Shown here: positions 9,047 through 56,846 of the stretch, one piece after another
Position numbering within the stretch: the first letter of the stretch is position 1
Layout: each line of letters begins with the position of its first letter
The notes under the pieces: generated by a model
Databases searched by the model: none
What the model was told of the DNA's origin: nothing
Seen by the model: only the letters and a program-made list of their open reading frames with translations
Translations under genes and position numbers: made by a program
NCBI GenBank assembly: GCA_965214095.1
Contig: OZ243938.1
Coordinates: forward strand, 3,648,001-3,712,000
Reading direction: 5' to 3'
DNA length: 64,000 nt
Origin: Candidatus Poribacteria bacterium
GTDB taxonomy: Bacteria > Poribacteria > WGA-4E > WGA-3G

Positions 9047-9240
9047 TGGTAGGCGAGGTTTCCTAACCTCGCCGATGCCGTGTTCAATCATAGTTAAAAC
9101 CATAATTATTTACACACTACGGTAGGTTCGGTTTCCTAACCGAACCGGTCTTTGTTCAGTCTCATAGATGCGGTTAGGAAACCGCATCTACCGCGGAGTG
9201 TGCACGTATTTTTACATTTCACTATAATTTCAAAATCTAC
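9047..9240. repeat. Nested REP/MITE cluster (T3 element 9091..9226 inside a T2 remnant)
   Basis: REP variants ggtaggcgaggtttcctaacctcgcc, ggtaggttcggtttcctaaccgaacc and gatgcggttaggaaaccgcatctacc; T3 ends tagttaaaac / tttcactata. Confidence 0.7.
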
Positions 9241-10142: not shown

Positions 10143-10500
10143 GTTTATTGTAAAAACCTTGATTATTTACACACTACGGTAGGTTCGGTTTCCTAACCGA
10201 ACCGGCTTTTTGCCAAATACCTTCATAGAGTTTCTCGCGTAGGATCCGGTTCGGTTAGGAAACCGAACCTACCGGCCTGGGGAAAACGCCTAATTTACAC
10301 TAAATTGACGCCTATGGTTCGGTTAGGAAACCGCACCTACCGGTCTGGGGCAAAAACAACACGTCTACCTGATTTATAGTGAATTATAAAATATGTTGAC
10401 ACTTGTTCTATAGGGGCGAACTCCGATTCGCGAATTATTATTATCGAGAATCGGAGTTCGTTCCTACAGATCAAATGCCAAGTTAATTCTAAAATCCACT
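10143..10500. repeat. REP/MITE cluster (solo IS-type end at ~10297..10316; T2-like element 10375..10500)
   Basis: Three main-family REP hairpins, cactaaattgacgcctatg end, and a tatagtgaattataa... element with an internal gaactccgattc / gaatcggagttc doublet. Confidence 0.7.
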
Positions 10501-13413: not shown

Positions 13414-14163
13414 ATGCTAATATTATATTTAGTGATTGCATTGGTAACAGTGGTATTCGGTGCTGGAATTGCTATCATTTTTGAGGACAAACAGGTTGAA
13501 TTCCGTATTATATTCGGTTTTACTGCCGGTGCTGTCCTCGGTTTCGTGTTATATTTGATGGTCCATCTCTTCACTGACGTAGGCTATCCCATAGTTTTAG
13601 TGATGTGGGGTGGTTTTCTTTTTATATGGTTGTTAGAGTATCTTACACATCGGATACGGAAGCAGATAAATACGAATGCAGAGACACACAAGCAAAATAT
13701 CTGGGGAGTCAACATCACTCTGATCGGCTTATCCATCCACTCAATTGCAGATGGATTCAACCTCAGTATAGCTGCGGAGGAAGGAACATTCGGTATTGCA
13801 CTTGCACTCGGCGTTCTACTTCACCGATTGCCAGTCGCAACAGTTTTAACAACAGCCTTGCACCGAGTTTATGGCGTTGGACGCACAGCATTATGGCTTG
13901 CTCCGTTTATAATCGCGCCATTCATTGGTGCATTTATGGGAGAACAGTTACTGCATGGAGTCTTTGAAGAGTTCGTTGACTATTTATTGCCATTTGCAGC
14001 AGGGACATTATTGCACGTTGTGATGGATGGTATGAAGGGTGGTTGTGTGGCATCGGAAGAAAAGATGAGTAGGACAACGAAAATAGCATTCGTTATTGGA
14101 TTGATTATAACGCTATGTGCATTTTATTTTATTCCGGGTTTAGAGCATGACCATGCACACTAA
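13414..14163 (+). CDS. ZIP-family divalent metal transporter
   Basis: Multi-TM; HSIADG, LLHRLP and AAGTLLHV motifs; His-rich tail. Start re-placed to ATG 13414. Confidence 0.85.
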   Translation: MLILYLVIALVTVVFGAGIAIIFEDKQVEFRIIFGFTAGAVLGFVLYLMVHLFTDVGYPIVLVMWGGFLFIWLLEYLTHRIRKQINTNAETHKQNIWGVNITLIGLSIHSIADGFNLSIAAEEGTFGIALALGVLLHRLPVATVLTTALHRVYGVGRTALWLAPFIIAPFIGAFMGEQLLHGVFEEFVDYLLPFAAGTLLHVVMDGMKGGCVASEEKMSRTTKIAFVIGLIITLCAFYFIPGLEHDHAH

Positions 14164-14569
14164 AGGTATTTTGCACAAATCCGGTTCGGTTAGGAAACCG
14201 AACCTACCGAACCATAGGCGTTTTCTCCAGGCTGGTAGGTGCGGTTTCCTAACCGCACGGAACTTGTGCGAGAACCTCCATGAAGGTATTTTGCACAAAT
14301 CCGGTTCGGTTAGGAAACCGAACCTACCGAACCATAGGCGTTTTCTCCAGGCTGGTAGGTGCGGTTTCCTAACCGCACGGAACTTGTGCGAGAACCTCCA
14401 TGAAGGTATTTTGCACAAATCCGGTTCGGTTAGGAAACCGAACCTACCGAACCATAGGCGTTTTCTCCAGGCTGGTAGGTTCGGTTTCCTAACCGCACGG
14501 AACCTGTGCGAGAACCTCTATGAAGGTATTTTGCACAAATCCGGTTCGGTTAGGAAACCGAATCTACCG
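14163..14569. repeat. Tandem array of a 120-bp REP-doublet unit (~3.4 copies)
   Basis: aaggtattttgcacaaatccggttcgg... recurs at 14163, 14283, 14403 and 14523; units almost identical. Confidence 0.95.
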
Positions 14570-20200: not shown

Positions 20201-20642
20201 TTGCATGAGCGTTCAGAAGCGTTTCTAAACAGGAAGAAACAGCATCAGGGGCATCACAGATAGACTCATATTTAAACTCAAAGTCGTGCCAATGCGCACC
20301 ATCACGTGCTGATGGCATGCCTGTATATATTTGAATACCCCAAGAGTTGTACCACTGCCTAATTTGCCAACTTCTTGTGCTTTGTCGTGTCAAGAACCGT
20401 TCGCCACCACAATCGGGTGGCACTTGATCATTTGCAGATGCGTGACCTATCGGCATAAATGAAATATCCGCATTCTCAAGTTCTTCAAGCATCAACGGAT
20501 TGCCACGTGCACAATGCACCTTGATGTGAAACGGCGGACGTTTGTATAACGCAGGGGTCACCACCGTTTTCCGTTGACGCAACGACTCTCTTTCCGCATG
20601 CCGTTCGTGACAAAGTTGAATAATTTCTTCTAATAAATGCAT
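17225..20642 (-). pseudogene. Frameshifted ~1140-aa gene: primase-polymerase-like N-terminus, degenerate helicase-like core, C-terminal HTH domains
   Basis: ORFs 19605..20642 and 17225..19612 join in frame if 2 nt (AT) are restored at ~19647, giving ...AITD-IWDDTGISPSNLVSKKVV.... Motifs TLTKSGGLRF, CPNCPVYTAC, ICIIDE, GKIVRVRRGVYSL. Domain calls tentative. Confidence 0.6.
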
Positions 20643-20731
20643 AGTTATACACCCAAAATTGTTGATACAGATATATGGTAGATTATGGAATTATTTATAC
20701 AGTCTACAACGGTGCGATTAGGAAATTGTAC

Positions 20732-20902
20732 CATAAGCGTCAATTTAGCATCCTTCCAAGTACTGGTAGGTTCGGTTTCCTAACCGAACCGGCTTTGTGC
20801 CAAATACCTTTATAGAGGTTCTCGCACAGGTTCCGTGCGGTTAGGAAACCGCACCTACCGGCCTGGAGAAAACGCCTAATTTACACTAAATTGACGCCTA
20901 TG
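20732..20902. mobile_element. 171-bp MITE with the IS4 element's TIRs; 20-bp target duplication
   Basis: Ends cataagcgtcaatttag / ctaaattgacgcctatg; gtgcgattaggaaattgtac at both 20712..20731 and 20903..20922. Confidence 0.9.
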
Positions 20903-20922
20903 GTGCGATTAGGAAATTGTAC

Positions 20923-21129
20923 CATAAGCGTCAATTTAGCATCCTTCCAAGTACTGGTAGGTTCGGTTTCCTAACCGAACCGGCTTTGTGCCAAATGAGG
21001 TTCTCGCACAGGTTCCGTGCGGTTAGGAAACCGCACCTACCGAGGTTCTCGCACAGGTTCCGTGCGGTTAGGAAACCGCACCTACCGGCCTGGGGAAAAC
21101 GCCTAATTTACACTAAATTGACGCCTATG
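20923..21129. mobile_element. Second tandem MITE copy (207 bp, internal rearrangement)
   Basis: Same TIRs; followed by gtgcgattaggaaatcgcac at 21130..21149. Confidence 0.85.
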
Positions 21130-21637
21130 GTGCGATTAGGAAATCGCACCTACCGGGGTACGGAAGTGTATAATTATTTTTTAACCATAATATGTTCAAT
21201 AAACGTGTCGTATCTACACGGTATGGATATGGAATCACACCGTGTGCATCACGATGGACGCAACCCGATTCACGGCAATCAGCAGGGAATTCCTAATCAT
21301 CCCTTCACCGTTAATTGTGCAAAAGTGCAAAATTAACACTGATCCCCTAATTAATTAAAAATGTAATAAAATATTGGATTCCCGATTGTTCCAATAACCT
21401 ATCCCTGTTGATCAGTACGATTAGATATGTGCACCAACCAACTTAGACATTAATATATTAGCACAGTACAGAATTTTCTTCAAGGAGTGTGTAAAGTTAA
21501 TACTCAAAGCGGTAGGTTCGGTTTCCTAACCAATGCAGAATACCACACGCGTATTCTGGCGAAACCGTCAATTTAGCATCCTTCCAAGTACCGGTAGGTT
21601 CGGTTTCCTAACCGAACCGGGTTTGCGCCAATTCATC

Positions 21638-26940: not shown

Positions 26941-27016
26941 AATCCTTTGTCCCACACACCGGTAGGTGCGATTTAGCGTGCTTCTAGGTCCGGTAGGTTC
27001 GGTTAGGAAACCGCAC

Positions 27017-27187
27017 CATAAGCGTCAATTTAGCATCCTTCCAAGTACCGGTAGGTTCGGTTTCCTAACCGAACCGGCTTTGTGCCAAATACCTTTATAG
27101 AGGTTCTCGCACAGGTTCCGTGCGGTTAGGAAACCGCACCTACCGGTCTGGGGAAAACGCCTAATTTACACTAAATTGACGCCTATG
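27017..27187. mobile_element. 171-bp MITE with IS4-type TIRs; 20-bp target duplication
   Basis: gttcggttaggaaaccgcac at both 26997..27016 and 27188..27207. Confidence 0.9.
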
Positions 27188-27264
27188 GTTCGGTTAGGAA
27201 ACCGCACCTACCAGCCTGGCGTCGGCACAAAGCCGGTTCGGTTAGGAAACCGAACCTACCGGCA

Positions 27265-28876: not shown

Positions 28877-29127
28877 ATTGTAGCGCAAACTGCCAGTTTG
28901 CGTACACTACTGCACAAACTGGCAGTTTGTGCTACGGCACAGTCCAGATAGTAAAATGTAAAAATATGTACACACTTCTCGGTAGATGCGGTTTCCTAAC
29001 CGCATCTATGAGACTGAACAAACGAACAAACACCGGTTCGGTTAGGAAACCGAACCTACCGGCACGGGAGTCGGCACAACACCGGTTCGGTTAGGAAACC
29101 GAACCTACCGACTGTGTTGATTACAAT

Positions 29128-30999
29128 CTACTTTAAGATAACAAGCTGCCGTATTTGCTGGAAGGATGACGTTTCCAATCGGTAGAAATACACACCACTT
29201 GCAACCCGTTCACCTAATGCATTTCTACCATCCCAATACGCAGCACGTCCTTGGTTGTGATAGAAACCTTCGGACTGATACCCCATAGTAAGCGTCCGAA
29301 CAAGTCCACCTGTCGCATCATATATTGATATGGATACAGGGGACGCAACTGACAACTGATACGGAATCCACGTCTCTGGATTGAACGGATTCGGATAGTT
29401 CTGCAACAACCGATCTTTGTTCGGTTGACCGATACTATCAAGTGTGACAGGAAGCAAAGCATTCGCTAAGTTATCAGGTGTTACCGTAAAGATGTATTTT
29501 TCAGAGGCAACGTTTCCGTTGGTATCAGTGACGGTAACTTCCAGTGTATCACCAACTTGCACAACATTCCGATAGGTCAGGTCTGCTGTAGCAGCAGCGA
29601 AGTAGTTATCATTCACTTGTGCTGTCATGAGGGTGTTTGTCCGTGTATTTCTGACAGTGATAAGATAGCCGTCATATTGTTGTGTGCCATCTAATTGTCC
29701 ACTCACAACGAATGCCCATGTTTCGGGTGCTGTTATATTTGGCGTTGCAGTTGGTGCTGCCGCACTGTCTTGTTGTGGGTTTGCCCAACCTGCACCGACG
29801 AATGCGAAGTCGCGTGCTTGTGGTACATTGACGATATAGCCTTTTCCGCCTTCAATAGCGAATCCATCGTTAGGTGCGTTCGGTGTCCACCCGACGAAAC
29901 TCTGTTTCTCGGTATCCAGTGCTATAACAACCGTTGCACCAGTCAATCCAGCAAATGATTTTGCGTTCATTGGTGTTCGGGAAGCTAAAGGCACAGAAAG
30001 CATGTTCAAACCTTCAGTAAGGTGTGTTTGGAAAACGTTACTATGTCTTTCTGCTTCTTCTTGTGTAGTAGGAATGGCAACACATCCGTGTCTACGTCCA
30101 TCTGGTGTATCATAGTATCCTGTTATCCAGCCGTTGTTGTCAATATCACGCAGCACAGTTACAACACTGCCGGGATAACGGAGTTCAAGGGGTTCACTGC
30201 CGAGGTGGATAACATAAGAACGTTCAATATCGTCTACGGCTTTCGCTCGGAATACAATGGACCCTACATCATTGATTGCATTCACAAAGAGGTATTCAGG
30301 GTTCGGGATGTTGGGAACATCAATATCGTGAACACTACCGTCAGGAAGGCGGGAAAACCCGTGATAGATACCATCACTATTGACATAACTCCCAACGACG
30401 ACACCCGCAGTATTAATATCATCAATGTATGTTGTTATTGCCGAAGGCACATTATATTGTCCTTCTCCAATAAAACCATTAACAACTTCTTCAACGTCAA
30501 TAGTGTCTCCGAGCAATTGTCCATCTTCTGCGATACCGAAGATTTGTGTGTTTAATGCACCAGGGAAGTTCCACACATTTATCTCACCATCCTGCAAAAT
30601 AATGCCGTGAGAAATCTCGTTTTGATCTATGTAAAATCCTGCTGCTTGTCCACTGTTATTGAGTCCATAGAAGGTAGTCTGTTTGGAATCAGGGACATCA
30701 TAAGTGATAAATTCTCCATCAATCAAGGTGAATCCAATAAGTTTATCATCAACGTTCTTAGTATTACCCGCGTAATGTCCGTGATCGTTGCTGGCAGTCA
30801 CTTCAAGGAAGTCAACACCGGGAACATTTATCGTTTCAAAGATATAGTACGAAGGTAATGGTGATACGGGTTCGGCAGAAATTAGGACAGGAACTGGCGG
30901 ACCGGGAGGTGTAGTATCAGATTGTGCTGTGGTGTGCCCTCCCAAACAGACAATAAGAGTTATAATCAGGAGAATATTAGTTTTTATAAGGTATTTCAA
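29128..30999 (-). CDS. Secreted repeat (HAF-like, probable beta-propeller) protein with FlgD-Ig/T9SS-like C-terminal domain, paralogue 1
   Basis: ~40-aa repeats (D.PG....ginn.G...G.Y); LLQNYPNPFNPETWIPYQL C-terminal domain. Probable TTG start at 30999; the ORF-track extension lies in repeat DNA. Confidence 0.75.
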   Translation of the reverse strand: MKYLIKTNILLIITLIVCLGGHTTAQSDTTPPGPPVPVLISAEPVSPLPSYYIFETINVPGVDFLEVTASNDHGHYAGNTKNVDDKLIGFTLIDGEFITYDVPDSKQTTFYGLNNSGQAAGFYIDQNEISHGIILQDGEINVWNFPGALNTQIFGIAEDGQLLGDTIDVEEVVNGFIGEGQYNVPSAITTYIDDINTAGVVVGSYVNSDGIYHGFSRLPDGSVHDIDVPNIPNPEYLFVNAINDVGSIVFRAKAVDDIERSYVIHLGSEPLELRYPGSVVTVLRDIDNNGWITGYYDTPDGRRHGCVAIPTTQEEAERHSNVFQTHLTEGLNMLSVPLASRTPMNAKSFAGLTGATVVIALDTEKQSFVGWTPNAPNDGFAIEGGKGYIVNVPQARDFAFVGAGWANPQQDSAAAPTATPNITAPETWAFVVSGQLDGTQQYDGYLITVRNTRTNTLMTAQVNDNYFAAATADLTYRNVVQVGDTLEVTVTDTNGNVASEKYIFTVTPDNLANALLPVTLDSIGQPNKDRLLQNYPNPFNPETWIPYQLSVASPVSISIYDATGGLVRTLTMGYQSEGFYHNQGRAAYWDGRNALGERVASGVYFYRLETSSFQQIRQLVILK

Positions 31000-31200
31000 A
31001 TCTCTATCCCTTTTAGTTGCATAGTAGTAGGCACACTCCGTGTGCCGTCCTATAGGTGTCAATTTCGGTTAGGAAACCCTGAGCATCAATTTCACCAAGG
31101 CTGGTAGGCTCGGTTTCCTAACCGAGCCGGATCCTACGCGAGAGCCTATAAAAAGACCGGTAGATGCGGTTTCCTAACCGCATCTATGAGACTAAACACA

Positions 31201-31524
31201 CACCAGTTCGGTTAGGAAACCGAACCTACCAGCACGGGTATCGGCACAACACCGGTTCGGTTAGGAAACCGAACCTACCAGCACGGGTATCGCCACTACA
31301 CTGGTTCGGTTAGGAAACCGAACCTACCGGCACGGGTATCGGCACAACACCAGTTCGGTTAGGAAACCGAACCTACCGGCACGGGTATCGGCACAACACC
31401 AGTTCGGTTAGGAAACCGAACCTACCAGCACGGGTATCGCCACTACACTGGTTCGGTTAGGAAACCGAACCTACCGGCACGGGTATCGGCACAACACCAG
31501 TTCGGTTAGGAAACCGAACCTACC
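31201..31524. repeat. Tandem array of seven REP hairpins with a 49-bp period
   Basis: gttcggttaggaaaccgaacctacc plus a near-constant linker (gcacgggtatcg(g/c)cac(a/t)acac); the homologous site at 29031..29110 has only two units. Confidence 0.92.
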
Positions 31525-31542
31525 GGCTGTGTTGATTACAAT

Positions 31543-34224
31543 CTATTTTAATATAACAAGCTGCCGTATTTGCTGGAAAGATGACGTTTCCAATCGGTAG
31601 AAATAGACACCACTTGCAACCCGTTCACCTAAAGCATTTCTACCATCCCAATACGCAGCACGTCCTTGGTTGTGATAGAAACCTTCGGACTGATACCCTA
31701 TAGTAAGCGTCCGAACAAGTCCACCTGTTGAATCATATATTGATATGGATACAGGGGACGCAACTGACAACTGATACGGAATCCACGTCTCAGGATTGAA
31801 CGGATTCGGATAGTTCTGCAACAACTTATCTTTGTTCGGTTGACCGATACTATCCAGTGTGACAGGAAGCAAAGCATTCGCTAAGTTATCAGGTGTTACC
31901 GTAAAGATGTATCTCTCAGAGGCAACGTTTCCGTTGGTATCAGTGACGGTAACTTCCAGTGTATCACCAACTTGCACAACGCTTCGATAGCTCAGGTCTG
32001 CCGTTGCAGCAGCGAAGTAGTTATCACTGACCTGTGCTGTCATGAGGGTGTTTGTCCGTGTGTTTCTGACTGAGATAAGATAGCCATCATATTGTTGTGT
32101 GTCATCTAATTGTCCACTCATAACGAATGCCCATGTTTCGGGTGCTGTTATATTTGGTGTTGCAGTCGGTGCTGCTGCACTGTCTTGTTGTGGGTTTGTC
32201 CAACCTGCACCGACGAATGCGAATTCGCGTGCTTGTGGCACATTGACGATGTAGCCTTTTCCGCCTTCAATAGCGAATCCATCGTTAGGTGCGTTTGGTG
32301 TCCACCCGACGAAACTCTGTTTCTCGGTATCCAGTGCTATAACAACCGTTGCACCAGTCAATCCAGCAAATGATTTTGCGTTCATTGGTGTTCGGGAAGC
32401 TAAAGGCACAGAAAGCATGTTCAAACCTTTCGTCAACTTCACACTGTAGGCGTTGCCAAACAAGTCGCTCACTGCTTCGGTAGTAGGTTTAGCGATAAAT
32501 CCGTGTCTACGTCCATCCGCTGACACATAGTTCCCGACAATAGAGCCATCCTGATTGATATTCCAACCCTCAGTGCTAACACTACCCGGGAATTCCAATT
32601 CTTTGAGTCCGTGCTGGAATGAACCGGTTACGGTACCCACCACATCTCCATACCTTTTGGCTCTGCCTACCAGAGTCCCTACATCGTTGATTCCGTGCAC
32701 AAAAAAGAATTCAAACGTTGCTGCTCGTGGCAATTCAATAGATATAAACCTTTCATCAGGGTTAAGCACATAAGGATGATATACCCCATCAGCATCCACA
32801 TAACTACCTACGAGGCGACCACTCGCGTTTACAAAATTGGCATAAGTTGCAGATGCATCGGGAACTTCCACGATGTCGTCTCCTGTGAACCCGCGACGAA
32901 CACCGGCTTCATCAATATAAGTCCCAGTCAATGCACCTGTCGCATCACTGATTCCATATATCTCTGTTTGCACAGCACCCGGGAAATCGTATTGCCGCAG
33001 TTCCCCATTTTCCAAAACGACACCATGATAGTTTCCGTCACTATCCATGTAGTGTCCAGCAGCGTTTCCATTATTACCGAGTGCATAGAAATGCGTTTTC
33101 TGTGAGTCGGGGAAATTATACCTCTTGAACTCACCATCAATTAGGGTAAATGCAACTTCTTTTTCACCATCAGCACTCAGTGTGTAACCGGCGTAATCCT
33201 CAAAGTCGCTACTTGCAGTCAACGCTAAGAAATCCACACCTGGAACATTAATACTTTCAAAGGTAAAGTTGAATTCGGTAGGCGTAGCAACAACAGGTTC
33301 GTCTTCAACTTCTGGAGCGATTCTGGCGATAAAGCCGTGTCTGTTACCATCTTCAGTGTCATAATGTCCGACAATAGAACCGTCTTGATTGATATTCCAC
33401 CCTTCCGTACTCACGCTGTCCGGAACCATAAACGGCTGTAGTCCATCCTGAAATGTACCGACAAATGTACTCGGAACACCGCCTTTACGTTTAGTCCGTG
33501 CAACGATGACTCTTGCATCGTTGATACCGTGCACAAAGAAGTATTCCAGAAATGATGCTTGTGGAAGGTCAAGAGAAACAAATCTGCCATCGGGTGTACG
33601 AATATAAGGATGATATAGACCTTCAGCATCAACGTAGCTCCCCACCATACCACCGCTTGAGTTCACAAAGTCAGCAAAAGTTTCCTGTGCTCCTTCAACT
33701 TCAATTATTTCGTCTCCAGAGAATCCGCGGCGAACACCAGAAGCATCTGTATAATTACCTGTCAAAGCACCAGTTGAATCACTGATACCGTAGATTTCAG
33801 TTTGAACGGAATCCGGAAAATCGTATTGCTGCAATTCGCCATTTTCATCCAAAACGACACCGTGTGTTAGCCCTTCACTGTCCTCGTAGTGTCCGGCAGC
33901 TTGACCATTATTACCGAGTGCAAAGAAATAAGTGTTTTGCGAACCCGGGAAATCATGCGTTGTAAAAACACCATCAATGAGTGTGAAGGCAACATTTTTT
34001 TCACCATCAGCACTTTTCGTGTAACCAGCGAAATCTCCAAAATCGTTACTCGCTGTCAACGCTAAAAAATCTACCCCCGGAACATCTATCGTCTCAAAAG
34101 TATAGTTGTCACTGGCAGATGCAGTCACATCTTGTGCAACAGTGTTCATCAAGAAAAATGAATTGAAGCACATCAACACTATAAGCATGTAAAAGAAAGG
34201 ACTCGTCTTAATCAATTTAGACAT
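31543..34224 (-). CDS. Secreted two-domain repeat protein with FlgD-Ig/T9SS-like C-terminal domain, paralogue 2
   Basis: Signal peptide; two ~275-aa homologous domains (FETIDVPGVDFLALTAS... / FESINVPGVDFLALTAS...); LLQNYPNPFNPETWIPY. Confidence 0.8.
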   Translation of the reverse strand: MSKLIKTSPFFYMLIVLMCFNSFFLMNTVAQDVTASASDNYTFETIDVPGVDFLALTASNDFGDFAGYTKSADGEKNVAFTLIDGVFTTHDFPGSQNTYFFALGNNGQAAGHYEDSEGLTHGVVLDENGELQQYDFPDSVQTEIYGISDSTGALTGNYTDASGVRRGFSGDEIIEVEGAQETFADFVNSSGGMVGSYVDAEGLYHPYIRTPDGRFVSLDLPQASFLEYFFVHGINDARVIVARTKRKGGVPSTFVGTFQDGLQPFMVPDSVSTEGWNINQDGSIVGHYDTEDGNRHGFIARIAPEVEDEPVVATPTEFNFTFESINVPGVDFLALTASSDFEDYAGYTLSADGEKEVAFTLIDGEFKRYNFPDSQKTHFYALGNNGNAAGHYMDSDGNYHGVVLENGELRQYDFPGAVQTEIYGISDATGALTGTYIDEAGVRRGFTGDDIVEVPDASATYANFVNASGRLVGSYVDADGVYHPYVLNPDERFISIELPRAATFEFFFVHGINDVGTLVGRAKRYGDVVGTVTGSFQHGLKELEFPGSVSTEGWNINQDGSIVGNYVSADGRRHGFIAKPTTEAVSDLFGNAYSVKLTKGLNMLSVPLASRTPMNAKSFAGLTGATVVIALDTEKQSFVGWTPNAPNDGFAIEGGKGYIVNVPQAREFAFVGAGWTNPQQDSAAAPTATPNITAPETWAFVMSGQLDDTQQYDGYLISVRNTRTNTLMTAQVSDNYFAAATADLSYRSVVQVGDTLEVTVTDTNGNVASERYIFTVTPDNLANALLPVTLDSIGQPNKDKLLQNYPNPFNPETWIPYQLSVASPVSISIYDSTGGLVRTLTIGYQSEGFYHNQGRAAYWDGRNALGERVASGVYFYRLETSSFQQIRQLVILK

Positions 34225-34704
34225 AAAAAAAACTCCTCTTGGTAATTTCTATAAATCTCAACATCCCTGTCAAACAAAGTGTCTCATATTTGATTTGTAA
34301 ATATCTTAACAGTATCTAATTTTTTCAAGAAAAACACAAGTTAAATTGTCTGTATTCAGGGTTATTTAGCCTTAGGTTTATCTGGTGTTTCTTTCACGGA
34401 CGCTAAATGTCCCAAAACGGTAGGTGCGGTTTCCTAACCGAACCGGCTTTGTTCCAAATACGTTCATATAGGTTCTCGCACAGGTTCCGTGCGGTTAGGA
34501 AACCGCACCTACCGGCCTGGGGAAAACGCGTAGGATCCGGTTCGGTTAGGAAACTTTCACGGACGCTAAATGCCCCAGGCCGGTAGGTTCGGTTTCCTAA
34601 CCGAACCGGCTTTATGCCAAATACGTTCATATAGGTTCTTGCACAGGTTCCGTGCGGTTAGGAAACCGCACCTACCGGCCTTAGGTGAGGTTAGGAAACC
34701 GCAC

Positions 34705-36192
34705 CATAGGCGTCAATTTAGTGATTTTTTGCTGCATTTTCAAGGTGTTCTAATGTTGTGTCTCTATTAGCACGTCTCTCAATGTAGCACCCATTTTGGA
34801 AAGCGTGTTTTATTTCATCAAAAGTTTGCCGAAAAGACATTATAGACTTGCGGAAACCTATTGCAAGTGTGCGTGCGAAGGTGCTAATAAGTTCTGCTGT
34901 TTTTGTTAGACTATGTTTTAGACATCGCCAACCGACCCTTAACATGATCCAGTGCCGCATAATTGCGACGATGAGTTTTGCATATAACTCACATAAGATT
35001 CTATATGGCTTGTCGCTACGGGAGGTATCAACTTTTCCAATGCTTTTGAAGCACTTGAACATCAACTCAACCTGCCATCGGATGCGTGCGACAGCACAAA
35101 TCTGTTCAGCAGTCAGATGGTCTACTTTTATATTAGTAATGTAGATATTCCATCTTGCGAGCTGAAGTCGTTTGGGTGAAGGTTTCGTATACTTCCGCTT
35201 TGCACGATGTTTTATCTCCTTAATACGCTGTTGGGTTTCTGTTTCTGAAAGTCTTTGAACAACTAATCGTGCTTTGAGACGCTTGTTTTTACCTATAAAG
35301 ATTTGTTTGTCCTTGAAGTTATTAGAACCCTTCTTGAGCCATTTTAGCAAACAAAAAGGGTCACCTGTTTCATCATAGAGAAAACACTGGACTTTGTAGC
35401 GTGATATCCAAAAGACGTTTGCATCGGAAAGTCTTTTGAAGGTATCAAGTGAATAATAGCCGAGGTCTGCGAGGCGCAAACTGCCGGCGGGTAGCATGTC
35501 AATCTGCTTTTCAATAGCACTATCAGCGGTGATACCATTGGTCAGTTCAAAGTGTTCAAAAGTGCCTGTGGCACTATCAAAACGCAGGTGGAGTTTCACG
35601 GCAGCTGTGTTCGGTTTATTCTTTTTGCTTCCACCTTCCCAAGTTTCGTGGAGCACATCAGGGAGTGTAATCCAAGAACTATCTTGTAAATAGACACCAG
35701 TGAACTTTTCAAGGAGCGGAAGCGTTTGCGGGTCGGCAGAAATAACCTTGGACGCAGTAGCATCAAGGATAACTTTCAGGGTCTCTGCTGCTTCAGATGT
35801 AAATCGTTGTTCAATGGCTTGTCGTGAGATTGAAATCCCCAGCACACCAGCGGTTTGCGCAAGTTGTGTATAGGTGGCATCTGGGTTTTCTAACCAAGTC
35901 CAAATGAGTATTTGAGCAAAACGACTACCGTTGAGTTTACAACTTCTTTTGACAAAACCTGTATTGAGAGCTGCATCATTGGCTATAGTTGTAAGAATAT
36001 GTTGCATTTCTTTGGGAACTTGTGATAATGTATTCATTAGGAAACACCTCTTTGTAGACCATAATAAATCTATATCTACATTATATATGAGGTGTTTTCA
36101 TTTTTACAGAAGTTTTATTTCATAATTTATACTTCCTCTGATTAAAAGTTGACACTTATCGGTCTTGGTGCATCCTTAAATTGACGCCTATG
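34705..36192 (-). mobile_element. IS4-family insertion sequence (IS231-like CAT..ATG ends), 1488 bp, inserted in a REP hairpin
   Basis: TIRs cataggcgtcaattta / taaattgacgcctatg; direct repeat gtgaggttaggaaaccgcac at 34685..34704 and 36193..36212. Confidence 0.93.
34718..36037 (-). CDS. IS4-family DDE transposase
   Basis: 439 aa; QDSS (D1), LADLGY (D2), ARIRWQVELMFKCFKS (YREK-type motif, with A in place of Y); stop codon inside the TIR. Confidence 0.95.
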   Translation of the reverse strand: MNTLSQVPKEMQHILTTIANDAALNTGFVKRSCKLNGSRFAQILIWTWLENPDATYTQLAQTAGVLGISISRQAIEQRFTSEAAETLKVILDATASKVISADPQTLPLLEKFTGVYLQDSSWITLPDVLHETWEGGSKKNKPNTAAVKLHLRFDSATGTFEHFELTNGITADSAIEKQIDMLPAGSLRLADLGYYSLDTFKRLSDANVFWISRYKVQCFLYDETGDPFCLLKWLKKGSNNFKDKQIFIGKNKRLKARLVVQRLSETETQQRIKEIKHRAKRKYTKPSPKRLQLARWNIYITNIKVDHLTAEQICAVARIRWQVELMFKCFKSIGKVDTSRSDKPYRILCELYAKLIVAIMRHWIMLRVGWRCLKHSLTKTAELISTFARTLAIGFRKSIMSFRQTFDEIKHAFQNGCYIERRANRDTTLEHLENAAKNH

Positions 36193-36259
36193 GTGAGGTT
36201 AGGAAACCGCACCCTACCAGCCTGGGGATTAACATAATCCTGAAAATCCTGGTTCAGAA

Positions 36260-38959
36260 TTACTTCAAAATAATTAACCGACGCGTTTGCTGGAAAGAAG
36301 GTGTCGTCAACTGGTAGAAATAAATACCACTTGCAACTTTTTCACCTAAAGTATTTCTGCCATTCCAATACGCAGCACGTCCGTGGTTATGATAGAATCC
36401 CTCCGATTGATAGCCGAGAGTAAGCGTCCGAACAAGTCCACCTGCCGTATCATATATTGATATGGATACAGGGGACGCAACCGACAGTTGATACGGTATC
36501 CACGTCTCAGGATTGAAGGGGTTCGGGTAGTTCTGCAACAACTGGTCTTTGTTCGGTTGACCGATGCTGTCAAGGGTGACAGGAAGCAAAGCATTCGCTA
36601 AGTTGTCGGGTGTCACCTTAAAGATATATTTCTCTGATGCGACATTCCCGATTATGTCAGACACGATTACTTCCAACGTATCACCAACTTGCACAACACT
36701 CCGATATGAAAGGTCTGCCGTAGCAGCGGCAAAGTAGTTATCACTGACTTTCGCTGTCATAACGGTGTTTGTCCGCGTGTTTCGGACTGTGATATGATAA
36801 CCGTCGTATTTCTGTGTACCTTGTAATTGTCCACTGACAACGAAAGCCCAAGCCTCACGTGCTGTCGCATTTGGAGATGCAGTCGGTGCTGCACTCGTAG
36901 GCATTTCATTTGTCCAACGTGCTCCGACGAAAGCAAAATCACGAACTTCTGGGACATTGACGATATAACCCTGACCACCTTCTATTGTGAAGCCATCATC
37001 AGGTGAACTTGGTGTCCAACCGATGAAACTTTGACTTTCAGTGTCAAGTGCTATCACCATTGTTGATCCTGTTATACCCGCCAGAGATTTTGCGTTCATT
37101 CGCGTTGTCGGTGCTAATGGCACAGACAGCATGTTTAGACCTTTGGTGAGTGTGACGGTATACGTGTTACCAAAATGATCACTCTCTTCCTGAGTACTGA
37201 GTCTTGCGACAAACCCGTGTCTACGTCCATCTGCTGAGACATAGTTCCCGACGACAGAAGCATCTTGATTGATATTCCAGCCCTCCGTGCTAACACTACC
37301 CGGATACTGCAATTCATGTAGTCCGTGCTGGAATGAGCCGACATAGGTGCGCGGCATGTCACCTACTGCTTTGGCTCTGCTAACGACAACGATGCCCCTT
37401 GCGTCTACATCGGCGACACCGTGAACGAAAAAGTATTCCAGATTGGTCGGATCCAGATAGTTCAGAACTGCGTATCTGCCATCCGGTCTATACGCGTATG
37501 AATGATATAGACCTTCAACGTCTACGTAGCTGCCGACGACAAGACCGCTTGCGTACACAAAATCGGCATAAGTTGCTGCTGCTTCAGGAGCCTCAACAAC
37601 TGTATCACCTGAGAATCCGCGACGAACGCCATCAGCACCTATAAAATTACCTGTCAGTGCGCCTGTTGCATCACTGATACCGAATATTTGCGTTTCGACG
37701 GCATCCGGAAAATCGTATTGGCGCAGTTCACCGTTTTCTAAGATGACACCGTGATAGAGACCGTCACTATCTTCGTAGTGCCCCGCAGCTTGTCCATTAT
37801 TATCGAGCGCATAGAAATATGTATTCTTAGAGCCGGGGAAATCGTAGGTGGTAAAAACACCATCAATCAGCGTAAAGGCGACTATTTTCTCGCCATCAGC
37901 ACGCCGCGTGTTACCAGCGTAATCTTCAAAATCGCTACTCGCTGTCAGATCTAAATAATCTACACCCGGCACATCAATGCTCTCAAATATAAAGTTGAAG
38001 TCGGCATCTGGTGTAGCGGGTTGCGTAGCAGTATCCGTTGTGGGTTTTGCGATAAACCCGTGTCTGTTTCCATCTGCTGTATCATAGTGTCCGACGATAG
38101 AACCGTCCTGATTAATATTCCAGCCCTCTGTGATAACACTGCCCGGATACTGCACTTCATGTAGACCATACCGCAGCGACCCGACATAGGTGCGTGTGAC
38201 ATCATCCACTGCTTTTGCTCTGCCAATGACAATCGTTGCATCGTTGATTCCATGCAGAAAAATGTATTCCAGATTGGACGCATCCAGATAATCCACAGTG
38301 AAGAATCTGCCATCCGGCGCAAACAGGTATGTATGATATAGACCTTCAACGTCTATGTATGTGCCTACGATACGACCGCTTGAGTTCACAAAATCGGCAT
38401 AAGTTGCTGTTGCATCGGGGTACTCAACGATTGTCTCGCCTGAAAATCCTCGGCGAATACCAGAAGTATCAATAAAATTGCCTGTCAGCGCGCCCGTCGC
38501 ATCACTGATACCGTATATCTCCGTTTGCACGGCACCCGGAAAATCGTATTGTCGCAACTCACCATCTTCTCCTAAGACGACACCGTGGTAGAGCCCATCG
38601 CTATCTTGGTAATGCCCCGCAGCTTGTCCATTATTACCGAATGCATAAAAATGAGTTTTCTGCGAATTGGGGAAATCGTAGGTCGTAAAAACACCATCAA
38701 TCAGTGTAAAGGCGACTTCTTTTTCTCCATCAGCACTCCGTGTGTAACCCGCATAATCCTCAAAGTCACTACTCGCTGTCACCGCTAAAAAATCTACACC
38801 CGGAACATCAATGCTCTCAAAGGTAAAGCTGGAGCCAGCGGACGCAACAGCGGATTCATCGTTATCTTGTGCAGTAGTTTCCCTTATGAAAAAGGAATTG
38901 AGGCACATGAATAACGTAAATATGTAAAACAGAAAACTGGTTCTAATTTGATTGCGCAT
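36260..38959 (-). CDS. Secreted two-domain repeat protein with FlgD-Ig/T9SS-like C-terminal domain, paralogue 3
   Basis: Same architecture as 31543..34224; 899 aa. Confidence 0.8.
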   Translation of the reverse strand: MRNQIRTSFLFYIFTLFMCLNSFFIRETTAQDNDESAVASAGSSFTFESIDVPGVDFLAVTASSDFEDYAGYTRSADGEKEVAFTLIDGVFTTYDFPNSQKTHFYAFGNNGQAAGHYQDSDGLYHGVVLGEDGELRQYDFPGAVQTEIYGISDATGALTGNFIDTSGIRRGFSGETIVEYPDATATYADFVNSSGRIVGTYIDVEGLYHTYLFAPDGRFFTVDYLDASNLEYIFLHGINDATIVIGRAKAVDDVTRTYVGSLRYGLHEVQYPGSVITEGWNINQDGSIVGHYDTADGNRHGFIAKPTTDTATQPATPDADFNFIFESIDVPGVDYLDLTASSDFEDYAGNTRRADGEKIVAFTLIDGVFTTYDFPGSKNTYFYALDNNGQAAGHYEDSDGLYHGVILENGELRQYDFPDAVETQIFGISDATGALTGNFIGADGVRRGFSGDTVVEAPEAAATYADFVYASGLVVGSYVDVEGLYHSYAYRPDGRYAVLNYLDPTNLEYFFVHGVADVDARGIVVVSRAKAVGDMPRTYVGSFQHGLHELQYPGSVSTEGWNINQDASVVGNYVSADGRRHGFVARLSTQEESDHFGNTYTVTLTKGLNMLSVPLAPTTRMNAKSLAGITGSTMVIALDTESQSFIGWTPSSPDDGFTIEGGQGYIVNVPEVRDFAFVGARWTNEMPTSAAPTASPNATAREAWAFVVSGQLQGTQKYDGYHITVRNTRTNTVMTAKVSDNYFAAATADLSYRSVVQVGDTLEVIVSDIIGNVASEKYIFKVTPDNLANALLPVTLDSIGQPNKDQLLQNYPNPFNPETWIPYQLSVASPVSISIYDTAGGLVRTLTLGYQSEGFYHNHGRAAYWNGRNTLGEKVASGIYFYQLTTPSFQQTRRLIILK

Positions 38960-39000: not shown

Positions 39001-39648
39001 GTTTCCTAACTGCACCTTATGTGTCAATTTAGTGTAAATTAGGCGTTTTCCCCAGGCCGGTAGGTTCGGTTTCCTAACCGAACCGAATACAAAAATTTGA
39101 TTTATCAAACTCACGTTATAGTGAATTATAAATATAAGTTGACACTTTCGACCCGCGGTAGGCGAGGTTTCCTAACCTCGCCGATGCAGAGTGTTCAAGT
39201 AATTTCAAAATCAAAGCAAAATATAGGTATTTTGCAAAACTAACTTAACGTCTTATAATTAATCATATTAAGACATTATTATATAATAATAGTTTATACA
39301 AAACTTATAACGTCTACATATTGATATTTTTTGTTTATGGTATTGGATTGAGAGGTGGTCTTTATGTCTCGCTTTGTGTATTTGGCACAAAGCCGGTTCG
39401 GTTAGGAAACCGAACCTACCGTCGTATGTAATAATTATGGTTTTTACTATAGTGGAATGGACAATTAATAGGACACGCCTCAGAGGGCGAGGAAACCTCG
39501 CCCCTACGATTTATAGTAAAATCTGAAATTAACAATACACTTTACATTTAGAAAAACGCGTTTGTAGTCGCGCAATTGATTGCGCCTCTTACATTGTATG
39601 AATATGCAATTGGGACAATATGTTTCATTAATTGTAAGTTTTACTATA
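39001..39648. repeat. REP/MITE cluster (degenerate IS-type end, T2 remnant 39117..39212, T1 39512..39648)
   Basis: Matches to the element families seen elsewhere in the window. Confidence 0.7.
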
Positions 39649-50097: not shown

Positions 50098-50214
50098 ATA
50101 GTCTCCTTGAAAATGGAATAGGACTCAATTATAGATTTAATTATTTACACACTACGGTAGGTTCGGTTTCCTAACCGCTTCCCCAGGACGGTAGGTTCGG
50201 TTTCCTAACCGACC

Positions 50215-50386
50215 CATAAGCGTCAATTTAGCGTCCTTCCAAGTACCGGTAGGTTCGGTTTCCTAACCGAACCGGCTTTGTGCCAAATACCTTCATAGAG
50301 GTTCTCGCATAGGATCCGGTTCGGTTAGGAAACCGAACCTACCGGCCTGGGATTATAGCGTGATTCCCCTTAAATTGACGCCTATG
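50215..50386. mobile_element. 172-bp MITE with IS4-type TIRs; 20-bp target duplication; nested in T3 element 50130..50515
   Basis: gttcggtttcctaaccgacc (non-consensus REP variant) at both 50195..50214 and 50387..50406. Confidence 0.9.
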
Positions 50387-50534
50387 GTTCGGTTTCCTAA
50401 CCGACCCGGTGTTTGTTCTGTCTCATAGTCAGGCAGAATGCGCGTATGGCATTCTGCATTGGTTAGGAAACCGCATCTACCGGGGAGTGTGCATGTATTT
50501 TTACATTTTACTATAATAACACGAGGATGTCAAA

Positions 50535-56356: not shown

Positions 56357-56846
56357 TGTCTGAACCAGGATTTTCAGGATTAGTAGATTTTCAAGATAAG
56401 ACTTCTCATCTAATACCATTTCTCATAAAGAATAGTTCATTATGAGATTGTGAATTCAGCGGAATATTGTCTGGACCAAGATTTTCAGGATTATGCGTCT
56501 GACGTTTCAAAGTGCCGTTGGTGGGATAGGCTGAAACTTGATGTTGGCAAGAATGGGACAATCGGGGTTAGAGACCCTACCTAAAGATTAGTGTAGACAG
56601 AACACTACGGTAGGTTCGGTTTCCTAACCGAACCGGCTTTGTGCCAAATACCTTCATAGAGGTTCTCGCACAGGTTCCGTGCGGTTAGGAAACCGCACCT
56701 ACCGGCCTGGGGAAAACGCCTAATTTACACTAAATTGACACCTATGGTTCGGTTTCCTAACCGAACTGGTGTTTGTTCAGTGTTATAGATGCGGTTAGGA
56801 AACCGCATCTACCGTGGAGTGTGCCCGTATTTTTACATTTCACTAC
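56357..56846. repeat. REP/MITE cluster upstream of metH
   Basis: Two TCTGAACCAGGAT-type halves, four main-family REPs, a solo IS-type end ctaaattgacacctatg and a T3 right end. Confidence 0.7.

Follow-up and report, generated by a model that had tools for sequence, protein, structure and literature searches.

We analysed a 64,000-nucleotide stretch of a Candidatus Poribacteria genome (positions 3648001-3712000 of contig C1, in the following called the window), in which a transposable element of the miniature inverted-repeat type (MITE) carries repetitive extragenic palindromes (REPs) as its cargo. The assembly, G000, comprises 5.25 Mb in 4 contigs and is 94.5% complete. At positions 20712-21149 three copies of a 20-nt hairpin alternate with two MITEs, and this arrangement is exact to both boundaries. 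The MITE is bounded by terminal inverted repeats (TIRs) and reads, from left to right, as the TIR CATARGCGTCAATTTAG, a 15-nt arm, REP1 (GGTAGGTTCGGTTTCCTAACCGAACC, with a TCCT loop), a 43-nt spacer, the inverse REP2 with an AGGA loop, a second arm and the inverted TIR. The REP itself is an imperfect palindrome of the form GGTAG-GTKCGGTT-loop-AACCGMAC-CTACC, tagged with GTAG and present in high copy number. An earlier note on this DNA had described the inverted REP doublet between TIRs, and the sequence reads so at all four copies at the coordinates given there. The partial copies that it listed are real as well, two of them being doublets with a right TIR and two being left-end fragments (Table 1). 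The first tandem copy is 97.6-99.4% identical to four full-length copies elsewhere, outside the window. The second owes its third REP to an internal duplication of 45 bp and also shows a 9-bp deletion. The hairpin between them can be explained in either of two ways: a duplicated hairpin was targeted again, or a unit of hairpin and MITE was duplicated. Folding of the MITE DNA gave values of -41 to -52 kcal/mol without a shuffle control, and they were not used as evidence.

Table 1. Coordinates of the MITEs, their flanking hairpins and the partner insertion sequence (IS) in the window
Feature	Position	Strand	Remarks
Left copy of the 20-bp target hairpin, GTGCGATTAGGAAATTGTAC	20712..20731	.	Same as 20903-20922; 2 mismatches to 21130-21149
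MITE copy 1, 171 bp	20732..20902	+	TIR, REP1 20769-20790, spacer, REP2 20834-20855, TIR
Middle hairpin, GTGCGATTAGGAAATTGTAC	20903..20922	.	Common to both tandem MITEs
MITE copy 2, 207 bp	20923..21129	+	Three REPs: 20960-20981, 21016-21037, 21061-21082
Right hairpin copy, GTGCGATTAGGAAATCGCAC	21130..21149	.	Followed by CTACC, the GTAG tag of the REP on the opposite strand
MITE 27017-27187 (171 bp) with perfect 20-bp REP-core duplications	26997..27207	+	Duplications 26997-27016 and 27188-27207; 0 mismatches
MITE 50215-50386 (172 bp) with perfect 20-bp REP-core duplications	50195..50406	+	Duplications on either side
One-ended derivative, REP doublet and right TIR	10178..10316	+	MITE 33-169, 92.8%; abuts REP 10316-10337
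One-ended derivative, REP doublet and right TIR	56609..56746	+	MITE 33-169, 97.8%; abuts REP 56746-56767
Fragment: degenerate left TIR, arm, REP1	21562..21625	+	
MITE left-end fragment	39016..39032		
Autonomous IS, 1488 bp, ends CATAGGCGTCAATTTAG and inverse	34705..36192	-	20-bp duplication GTGAGGTTAGGAAACCGCAC at 34685-34704 and 36193-36212
Transposase gene, 439 aa, single open reading frame	34718..36037	-	DDE_Tnp_1

The autonomous IS of Table 1 occurs in 13 copies in the genome, with an identity of 98.3-100% and an open frame in all of them. Its transposase matches the Pfam domain DDE_Tnp_1 (PF01609, 80.5 bits, E 1.9e-22) and the NCBIfam model of the IS4 family (NF033592, 195.9 bits compared to a cut-off of 115), and a sequence search against solved structures gave no match up to E 1. 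In the region of the YREK motif (A..R...E......K, residues 317-331, ARIRWQVELMFKCFK) the spacing of R, E and K is kept and the Y is replaced by A. We detected the ends of this IS on the MITEs: the right end of the 20732/27017 type equals the IS left end over 19 nt, the right end of the 50215 type equals the IS right end over 19 nt, as had been noticed before, and over 17 nt the left end of the MITE is matched exactly by 6 of the 13 IS copies at their own left end. It is likely that the MITE is moved in trans by this 13-copy IS4-family element through the common ends. Judged from the sequences, the pair of MITE and IS is real and recently active.

For the genome-wide count that the earlier note had called for, TIR-like termini were called at up to 3 mismatches (n=183) and paired, and pairs with a common right end were collapsed. 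This resulted in 50 elements, 13 of them ISs and 37 of them paired-TIR MITEs of 140-320 bp, which are too short for a transposase. All 13 IS copies are flanked by a 20-bp direct repeat. For the MITEs we scored a target duplication as a 19-21-bp direct repeat with up to 2 mismatches and observed it at 24 of the 37 copies, with 20 bp in 20 cases, 19 bp in three cases and 21 bp in one case. Target sites were classified with a structural rule for REPs (GGTT-TCCT/AGGA-AACC with up to 1 mismatch, in addition to which 4 or more of the 5 outer pairs have to be present). In a REP the duplicated sequence covers all of the 22-bp palindrome except its outermost base pair, namely the inner 20 bp, and the terminal C and G of the element restore that pair, which leaves a complete hairpin on each side. 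The claim that the hairpin is duplicated when the element enters a REP holds. The tie between the duplication and hairpins does not: 17 duplications (3 IS, 14 MITE) are located at sites that fail the REP rule, including degenerate REPs, other hairpin families and the variant hairpin of the window itself, and repeats of 19-20 bp were also found at plainly non-palindromic sites such as GGTACTAGGCACATCAACAC, GTGAATATGCTAATGCTCTC and ATGCTGATGTTTACATCATT. As 19-21-bp repeats occur at non-hairpin sites too, the long duplication is a property of the transposase.

There is a second way to read the flanking hairpins, in which they are not duplications at all: each element end would carry half a stem, and insertion into the loop would duplicate 4 bp in a manner similar to IS1397. 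At a palindromic target both models yield an identical sequence. We nevertheless regard this model as extremely improbable. The plain 19-20-bp direct repeats at non-palindromic sites rule out a 4-bp duplication with stems owned by the element, and rare stem variants are found on the outer and inner halves of one and the same site. The hairpin variants co-vary across both sides of an element (GTGAGGTT... at the IS, GTGCGATT... at the tandem MITEs), which fits a duplication and not extended TIRs.

REP cores account for ∼0.3% of the genome, yet they hold 10 of the 13 ISs and, among the 24 MITEs that have a duplication, 9 or more. Across all termini, 78 of 183 abut a REP. The consensus of the 13 non-REP sites of 20 bp is symmetric (G|GTGC-N12-GCAC|C), and we infer that the preference for REPs comes from their two stem arms, which offer the two half-sites in the proper spacing. 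The orientation of the loop is biased: in 9 of the 10 REP-targeted ISs and in 6 of the 9 MITEs it reads AGGA in the element's own orientation. This bias indicates that either the near-palindromic target is read asymmetrically or the insertion is strand-biased.

Copies of this kind could also have arisen from segmental or tandem duplication combined with recombination between REPs, without any transposition. Tandem arrays do exist, namely the MITE-hairpin-MITE arrangement at 20712-21149 and three units of 120 bp at 14163-14569, and the MITEs that lack a duplication as well as the common flanks of three MITEs at C1:1881012, 3080288 and 4972884 point in the same direction. We therefore compared the distal flanks for all pairs among the 50 elements, requiring at least 100 bp to be shared within 30-230 bp from the element. 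A distal flank was shared by only 8 pairs, which are nested or tandem cases and one trio inside another repeat. The unrelated distal flanks of most elements, the individual 19-21-bp direct repeats that the elements carry and the precise termini, which are the same as those of the ISs with an intact transposase, all contradict duplication as the source, and it was rejected for the bulk of the copies. This check had been proposed beforehand as one that could overturn the transposition reading. As a general account we consider segmental duplication very improbable, though it may hold for individual arrays.

Two of the repeated structures deserve a separate description. The three 120-bp units at 14163-14569 consist of REP doublets with an arm starting CATAGGCGTTTTC. 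This arm resembles the right TIR of the MITE minus 22 nt between two AGGCGT repeats, and the units look like immobilised MITE derivatives that were amplified in tandem. The MITEs at C1:1492263, 3080288 and 4972884 (and 1881012) have common distal flanks and a near-identical 20-bp duplication, GTGTATAGAAAAATGT.... Either they lie inside another repeat that was itself copied or insertions have hit a hot spot repeatedly.

Sites without the elements could be inspected in G044 and G042, which are the closest genomes to this one. The block 20672-21190, which contains a REP unit and both tandem MITEs, is absent from both of them (flanks 87-93% identical), and G044 shows 3 nt in its place. The block 50138-50499 is likewise absent from both genomes. 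A contig of a related organism from a sponge-metagenome run joins 20633 to 21194 via ∼37 nt. These comparisons show that both blocks are insertions at the level of the species, with the MITE step not isolated within them. Seen against G044 and G042, the block 20672-21190 consists of a REP unit, bounded by inverted AT-rich arms of its own, that was later entered by MITEs, and this indicates that a single intergenic site experienced three or more nested events.

According to the earlier note the MITE seeds its own targets: each hop would duplicate the target hairpin and deliver two more, so that REPs could multiply by positive feedback, and nesting of MITEs in MITEs was to be counted as a check. 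Cargo REPs are indeed used as targets. For the IS at C1:2355851 the reconstructed empty site is a complete MITE (93.6% over 172 bp) with the insertion in REP1, and the ISs at 443699, 2351009 and 3639488 reside in REPs with MITE arms or the MITE spacer. The MITE at 2057070 adjoins MITE left-arm units, and tandems of MITE, hairpin and MITE occur in relatives as well as in the window, where the pair shares a hairpin. A preference for MITE-borne over other REPs was considered and dropped: ∼4 of the 10 REP-targeted ISs are located in MITE-type REPs compared to a share of 20-33% of MITE-associated REPs among all REPs, which is no clear excess in a sample that is too small.

We then studied the distribution of the REP and the IS among relatives, counting the REP 22-mer at up to 1 mismatch and the TIR 17-mer at up to 2 mismatches with a control level for comparison. 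The REP 22-mer was found in 21 of 31 genomes. It is present in 7 of the 12 genomes of other families, which have neither the IS nor its TIRs, including 3 of 4 genomes of family f2 and 4 of 4 of family f3. Homologues of the transposase were detected in 14 of the 18 genomes of the genus, with one weak match among the 12 outside it. Matches to the TIR 17-mer numbered 11-724 in every one of the 18 genus genomes and 0-3, the control level, outside. The counts of REPs and ISs do not run in parallel: in G001 46 IS matches come without any REP, in G006 a single IS match stands beside 163 REPs, and G003 combines 724 termini with 51 REPs. On this distribution the REP family exceeds the IS in both age and spread. 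A third GTAG-tagged repeat family, GTAGGTCGGGTAGAGSSAAGCGAAACCCGAC, was encountered at three loci of relatives (L008, L009 and L011 in G002, G001 and G007) and in the present genome near C1 5180447. It is where the 46-57% related IS usually lands in other species, with duplications of ∼19 bp; at L011 the flanks are inverted and not direct.

A REP-associated tyrosine transposase (RAYT) is the enzyme one would look for beside such repeats, and the earlier note had asked for a search. No cognate RAYT was found in the present assembly, which is 94.5% complete (best E 0.0065). There are five matches to PF01797. Four are copies of a 141-aa IS200-like gene, and a REP was not present within 1.5 kb of any of them. 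An N-truncated RAYT-like gene (C1:2666096-2666419, L005/L014) makes up the fifth match. It is located directly after a prepilin-peptidase-like gene and has a second hairpin family (ACATA-CCGCTCC-GCT-GGAGCGG) at its flanks; its full-length relatives have 164 aa, are 91-95% identical and lie between arrays of this second hairpin. All five were rejected as partners of the REP, four being free of REPs and the relatives of the fifth being flanked by the CCGCTCC...GGAGCGG hairpins. The relatives were also searched for weaker Y1 genes. We detected a 157-aa RAYT in G012 (L059:317-790) with 2 and 4 REPs of the cargo family on its two sides, and a 163-aa RAYT in G017 (L058) that has on either side a REP whose stems are the same and whose loop is TGT/ACA. 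Of the 39 other genomes in the genus, 20 contain homologues (E ≤ 1e-10). By their form and their neighbours in relatives, the cargo and target repeats are classical RAYT-type REPs. A dependence of the REP family on the DDE transposase is not supported, as the REP occurs in families without the IS. A RAYT lies beside REPs in relatives.

The association of MITE and REP is not confined to one species. Positions 1-61 of the MITE (TIR, arm and REP1) are 85-89% conserved in G003, G017, G002 and G014, and at the loci that we inspected in G003, G017 and G002 there are REP-carrying MITEs inside REPs, 20-bp duplications and MITE-hairpin-MITE tandems. Related ISs (46-70% identical) in other species have duplications of 18-20 bp, and these are located in REP-like hairpins that belong to three families. 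The cargo of the MITEs in G017 and G002 is the loop variant that flanks the RAYT of G017. Such differences between species in the REP variants inside MITEs with common TIRs would be expected if a RAYT-mobilised REP doublet system (REPIN) had entered pre-existing MITEs, perhaps repeatedly, instead of being captured by the IS, and the presence of RAYTs in half of the genus genomes searched would also suit this; the feedback would then be incidental. We consider this course of events possible but rather unlikely. The conservation of the 1-61 module in four species suggests an old common origin, and no REP-free MITE was observed at the 8 loci of relatives inspected, a small sample selected by hits.

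How much of the REP population goes back to the IS and the MITE was estimated from the positions of the REPs. The structural rule identifies 702 REPs compared to 4 in a shuffled genome. Of these, 65 are cargo of paired-TIR MITEs, 77 border directly on a terminus and 560 belong to neither class. The zone up to 160 bp from a terminus, which makes up 0.9% of the genome, contains 231 of the 702 REPs (33%), and 471 are farther away. Roughly, activity of IS and MITE accounts for ∼15% of the REPs (the cargo and half of the abutting copies) and for at most a third. For the convergent doublets with MITE geometry (n=75) we found both TIRs in 26 cases, one TIR in 24 and none in 25, and the doublets free of TIRs mostly come from other spacer families. 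Hidden relics of MITEs among the free REPs were sought and discarded as an explanation, with only 6 REPs showing a MITE arm signature and no TIR within 160 bp. The three commonest REP variants make up 68% of the terminus-associated REPs compared to 42% of the free ones, and this greater uniformity fits a more recent origin.

The self-seeding idea is therefore only partly borne out. REPs are duplicated, carried and reused as targets, but 471 of the 702 are more than 160 bp away from any terminus, and the net gain of three REPs per hop applies only if the donor copy is retained. The feedback is real but secondary in this genome. A stronger version would hold that in this genome without a RAYT the hopping of MITE and IS is now the main generator of REPs and explains why their count is the highest. 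We consider it unlikely, although several observations speak for it. The genome has the top REP 22-mer count (303 compared to 0-163 in 30 relatives) with no cognate RAYT found (best E 0.0065), one third of the REPs are located within 160 bp of a terminus and are more uniform than the rest, cargo REPs are reused, and REP-carrying MITEs recur across the genus. The assembly, however, is 94.5% complete and a RAYT could be unassembled. The 471 unassociated REPs with just 6 candidate relics, the origin of the free doublets in other spacer families and the presence of the REP where the IS is not all argue against it, as do the opposite proportions in G003 (724 termini and 51 REP 22-mers) and G006 (163 REPs and one IS match). 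Equally doubtful is the corresponding view of the REP family, by which it gained a second engine, being borne by MITEs through a DDE transposase, being able to go on multiplying in lineages that have lost the RAYT and having in this route its main source of new REPs in this genome. If this were true, a non-autonomous DNA would have switched transposase superfamilies, from HUH/Y1 to DDE.

One of the nearest likenesses among known systems is to IS231 and its mobile cassettes MIC231 of the Bacillus cereus group, which are moved in trans. The literature comparisons that follow draw on extracts of the cited papers. All IS4 subgroups are described with duplications of 7-13 bp, "approximately one DNA helix turn" (De Palmenaer et al. 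2008, PMC2266710), and the IS231 subgroup with the end signature CAT-------AA--TAA and duplications of 10-12 bp (PMC2266710 Table 1). The ends of the present IS fit this signature: the right end is CATAGGCGTCAATTTAAGG, and TAG occupies positions 15-17 of the left end. The resemblance to IS231 cassettes that had been pointed out thus holds for the end signature, the single-frame DDE_Tnp_1 transposase and the non-autonomous derivatives bounded by IS ends. It breaks down for the duplication of 20 bp compared to 10-12 bp, the change of the YREK Y to A and the cargo, which here is a non-coding REP doublet that is also the preferred target.

Several ISs that target REPs (ISRm22, ISPpu9/ISPpu10, ISPa11 and ISPsy8) split the REP and leave repeats of 0, 2 or 6 bp (Tobes and Pareja 2006, PMC1525189). 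ISRm22, itself of the IS4 family, resembles the present IS in that its insertion point is the axis of a REP consensus that is palindromic (PMC1525189). In contrast, the present IS duplicates the hairpin core in full, with an intact copy remaining on either side, and the extract of PMC1525189 describes no REP-carrying MITE for those elements. IS1630 of Mycoplasma fermentans likewise duplicates long inverted-repeat targets (16-26 bp, PMC3317919), but it belongs to the IS30 family, its duplication length is variable and no target-carrying MITE is reported in that source as far as the extract goes. IS1272 of Staphylococcus aureus also targets stem-loops; it is termed "inverted-repeat-replacing", with no target duplications reported in the extract (PMC5678879), whereas the present IS makes clear 20-bp duplications. 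With the REPIN/RAYT systems (REPtrons), for which PMC3733652 provides the background, the repeats have in common the GTAG tag, the inverted doublets, the hundreds of copies per genome and the Y1 gene between REPs in relatives. The 171-bp unit differs from them in that its mobility appears to rest on TIRs and on a DDE transposase that duplicates 20 bp, and not on HUH/Y1. A search of the open literature revealed no MITE whose cargo is the REP targeted by its own transposase.

Taking the flanks as a guide, the following mechanism can be proposed. The transposase would join the element ends to target phosphates ∼20 bp, or two helical turns, apart, and gap repair would then duplicate those 20 bp. 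It favours the symmetric consensus given above, which the stem arms of the REP (GGTKCGGTT-loop-AACCGMACC) match perfectly. Most insertions thus fall in REPs, with a complete hairpin remaining to the left and to the right. Each new copy that is retained adds two cargo REPs and one duplicated REP, and such REPs are seen to be reused as targets. The explanation that we favour, and that we hold to be probably correct, is accordingly a genuine MITE that is mobilised by an IS4-type enzyme with a 20-bp stagger and gives rise to a REP feedback that is real but secondary.

A number of observations weigh against this explanation. A stagger of 20 bp stands against 7-13 bp for the IS4 family (PMC2266710 Table 1) and the Y of YREK is missing, and because of both the mechanistic analogy with Tn5/Tn10 is uncertain. 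For 13 of the 37 MITEs there is no recognisable duplication. MITE and IS have just 17-19 nt in common, which means that the MITE is not a simple deletion derivative of the IS, and mobilisation in trans is inferred. The comparison genomes G044 and G042 lack the whole REP block and not the MITE alone, and a strain-level empty site with a single hairpin was not found, as the short-read contigs of the same organism (X4, X5 and X7) break at the repeats. Furthermore, the REP count depends on the rule, with 424 copies for one consensus at up to 3 mismatches compared to 702 for the structural rule.

Other REP arrangements were noticed as well. At 9090-9204 there is a REP-doublet element of ∼110 bp with an AT-rich arm (ATAGTAAAACCAATAATTATTTAYACACTRCGGTAGG...) and a REP spacing of 42 bp, which also occurs in a genome of another family (G025, L026-L037). 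Direct REPs form 49-bp tandem arrays of at least 7 units at 31151-31591 and 28981-29176. They are located just past the stop codon of large paralogous genes for secreted proteins, for example the gene at 31543-34224 (-). A related paralogue lies at 36260-38959, and the gap between the paralogues is filled by the IS and several REP doublets. Contig C2 of the assembly (32 kb) has a GC content of 64% compared to 41% for the main contig and contains no REPs; judged from this composition it may be foreign or mis-binned.

Bacterial genomes have few repeats as common as REPs, and the enzyme accepted as their spreader is the RAYT tyrosine transposase. In the system described here a DDE transposase makes extra intact REP hairpins in two ways, by duplicating the target hairpin and by carrying a REP doublet within the MITE. 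An IS4-type enzyme with a stagger of two turns (20 bp) raises the structural question of how the target DNA is held. The effect on REP numbers is quantitatively modest in this genome. Even so, the element offers a second, testable route to the multiplication of REPs, in which a mobile element enlarges the pool of its own targets.

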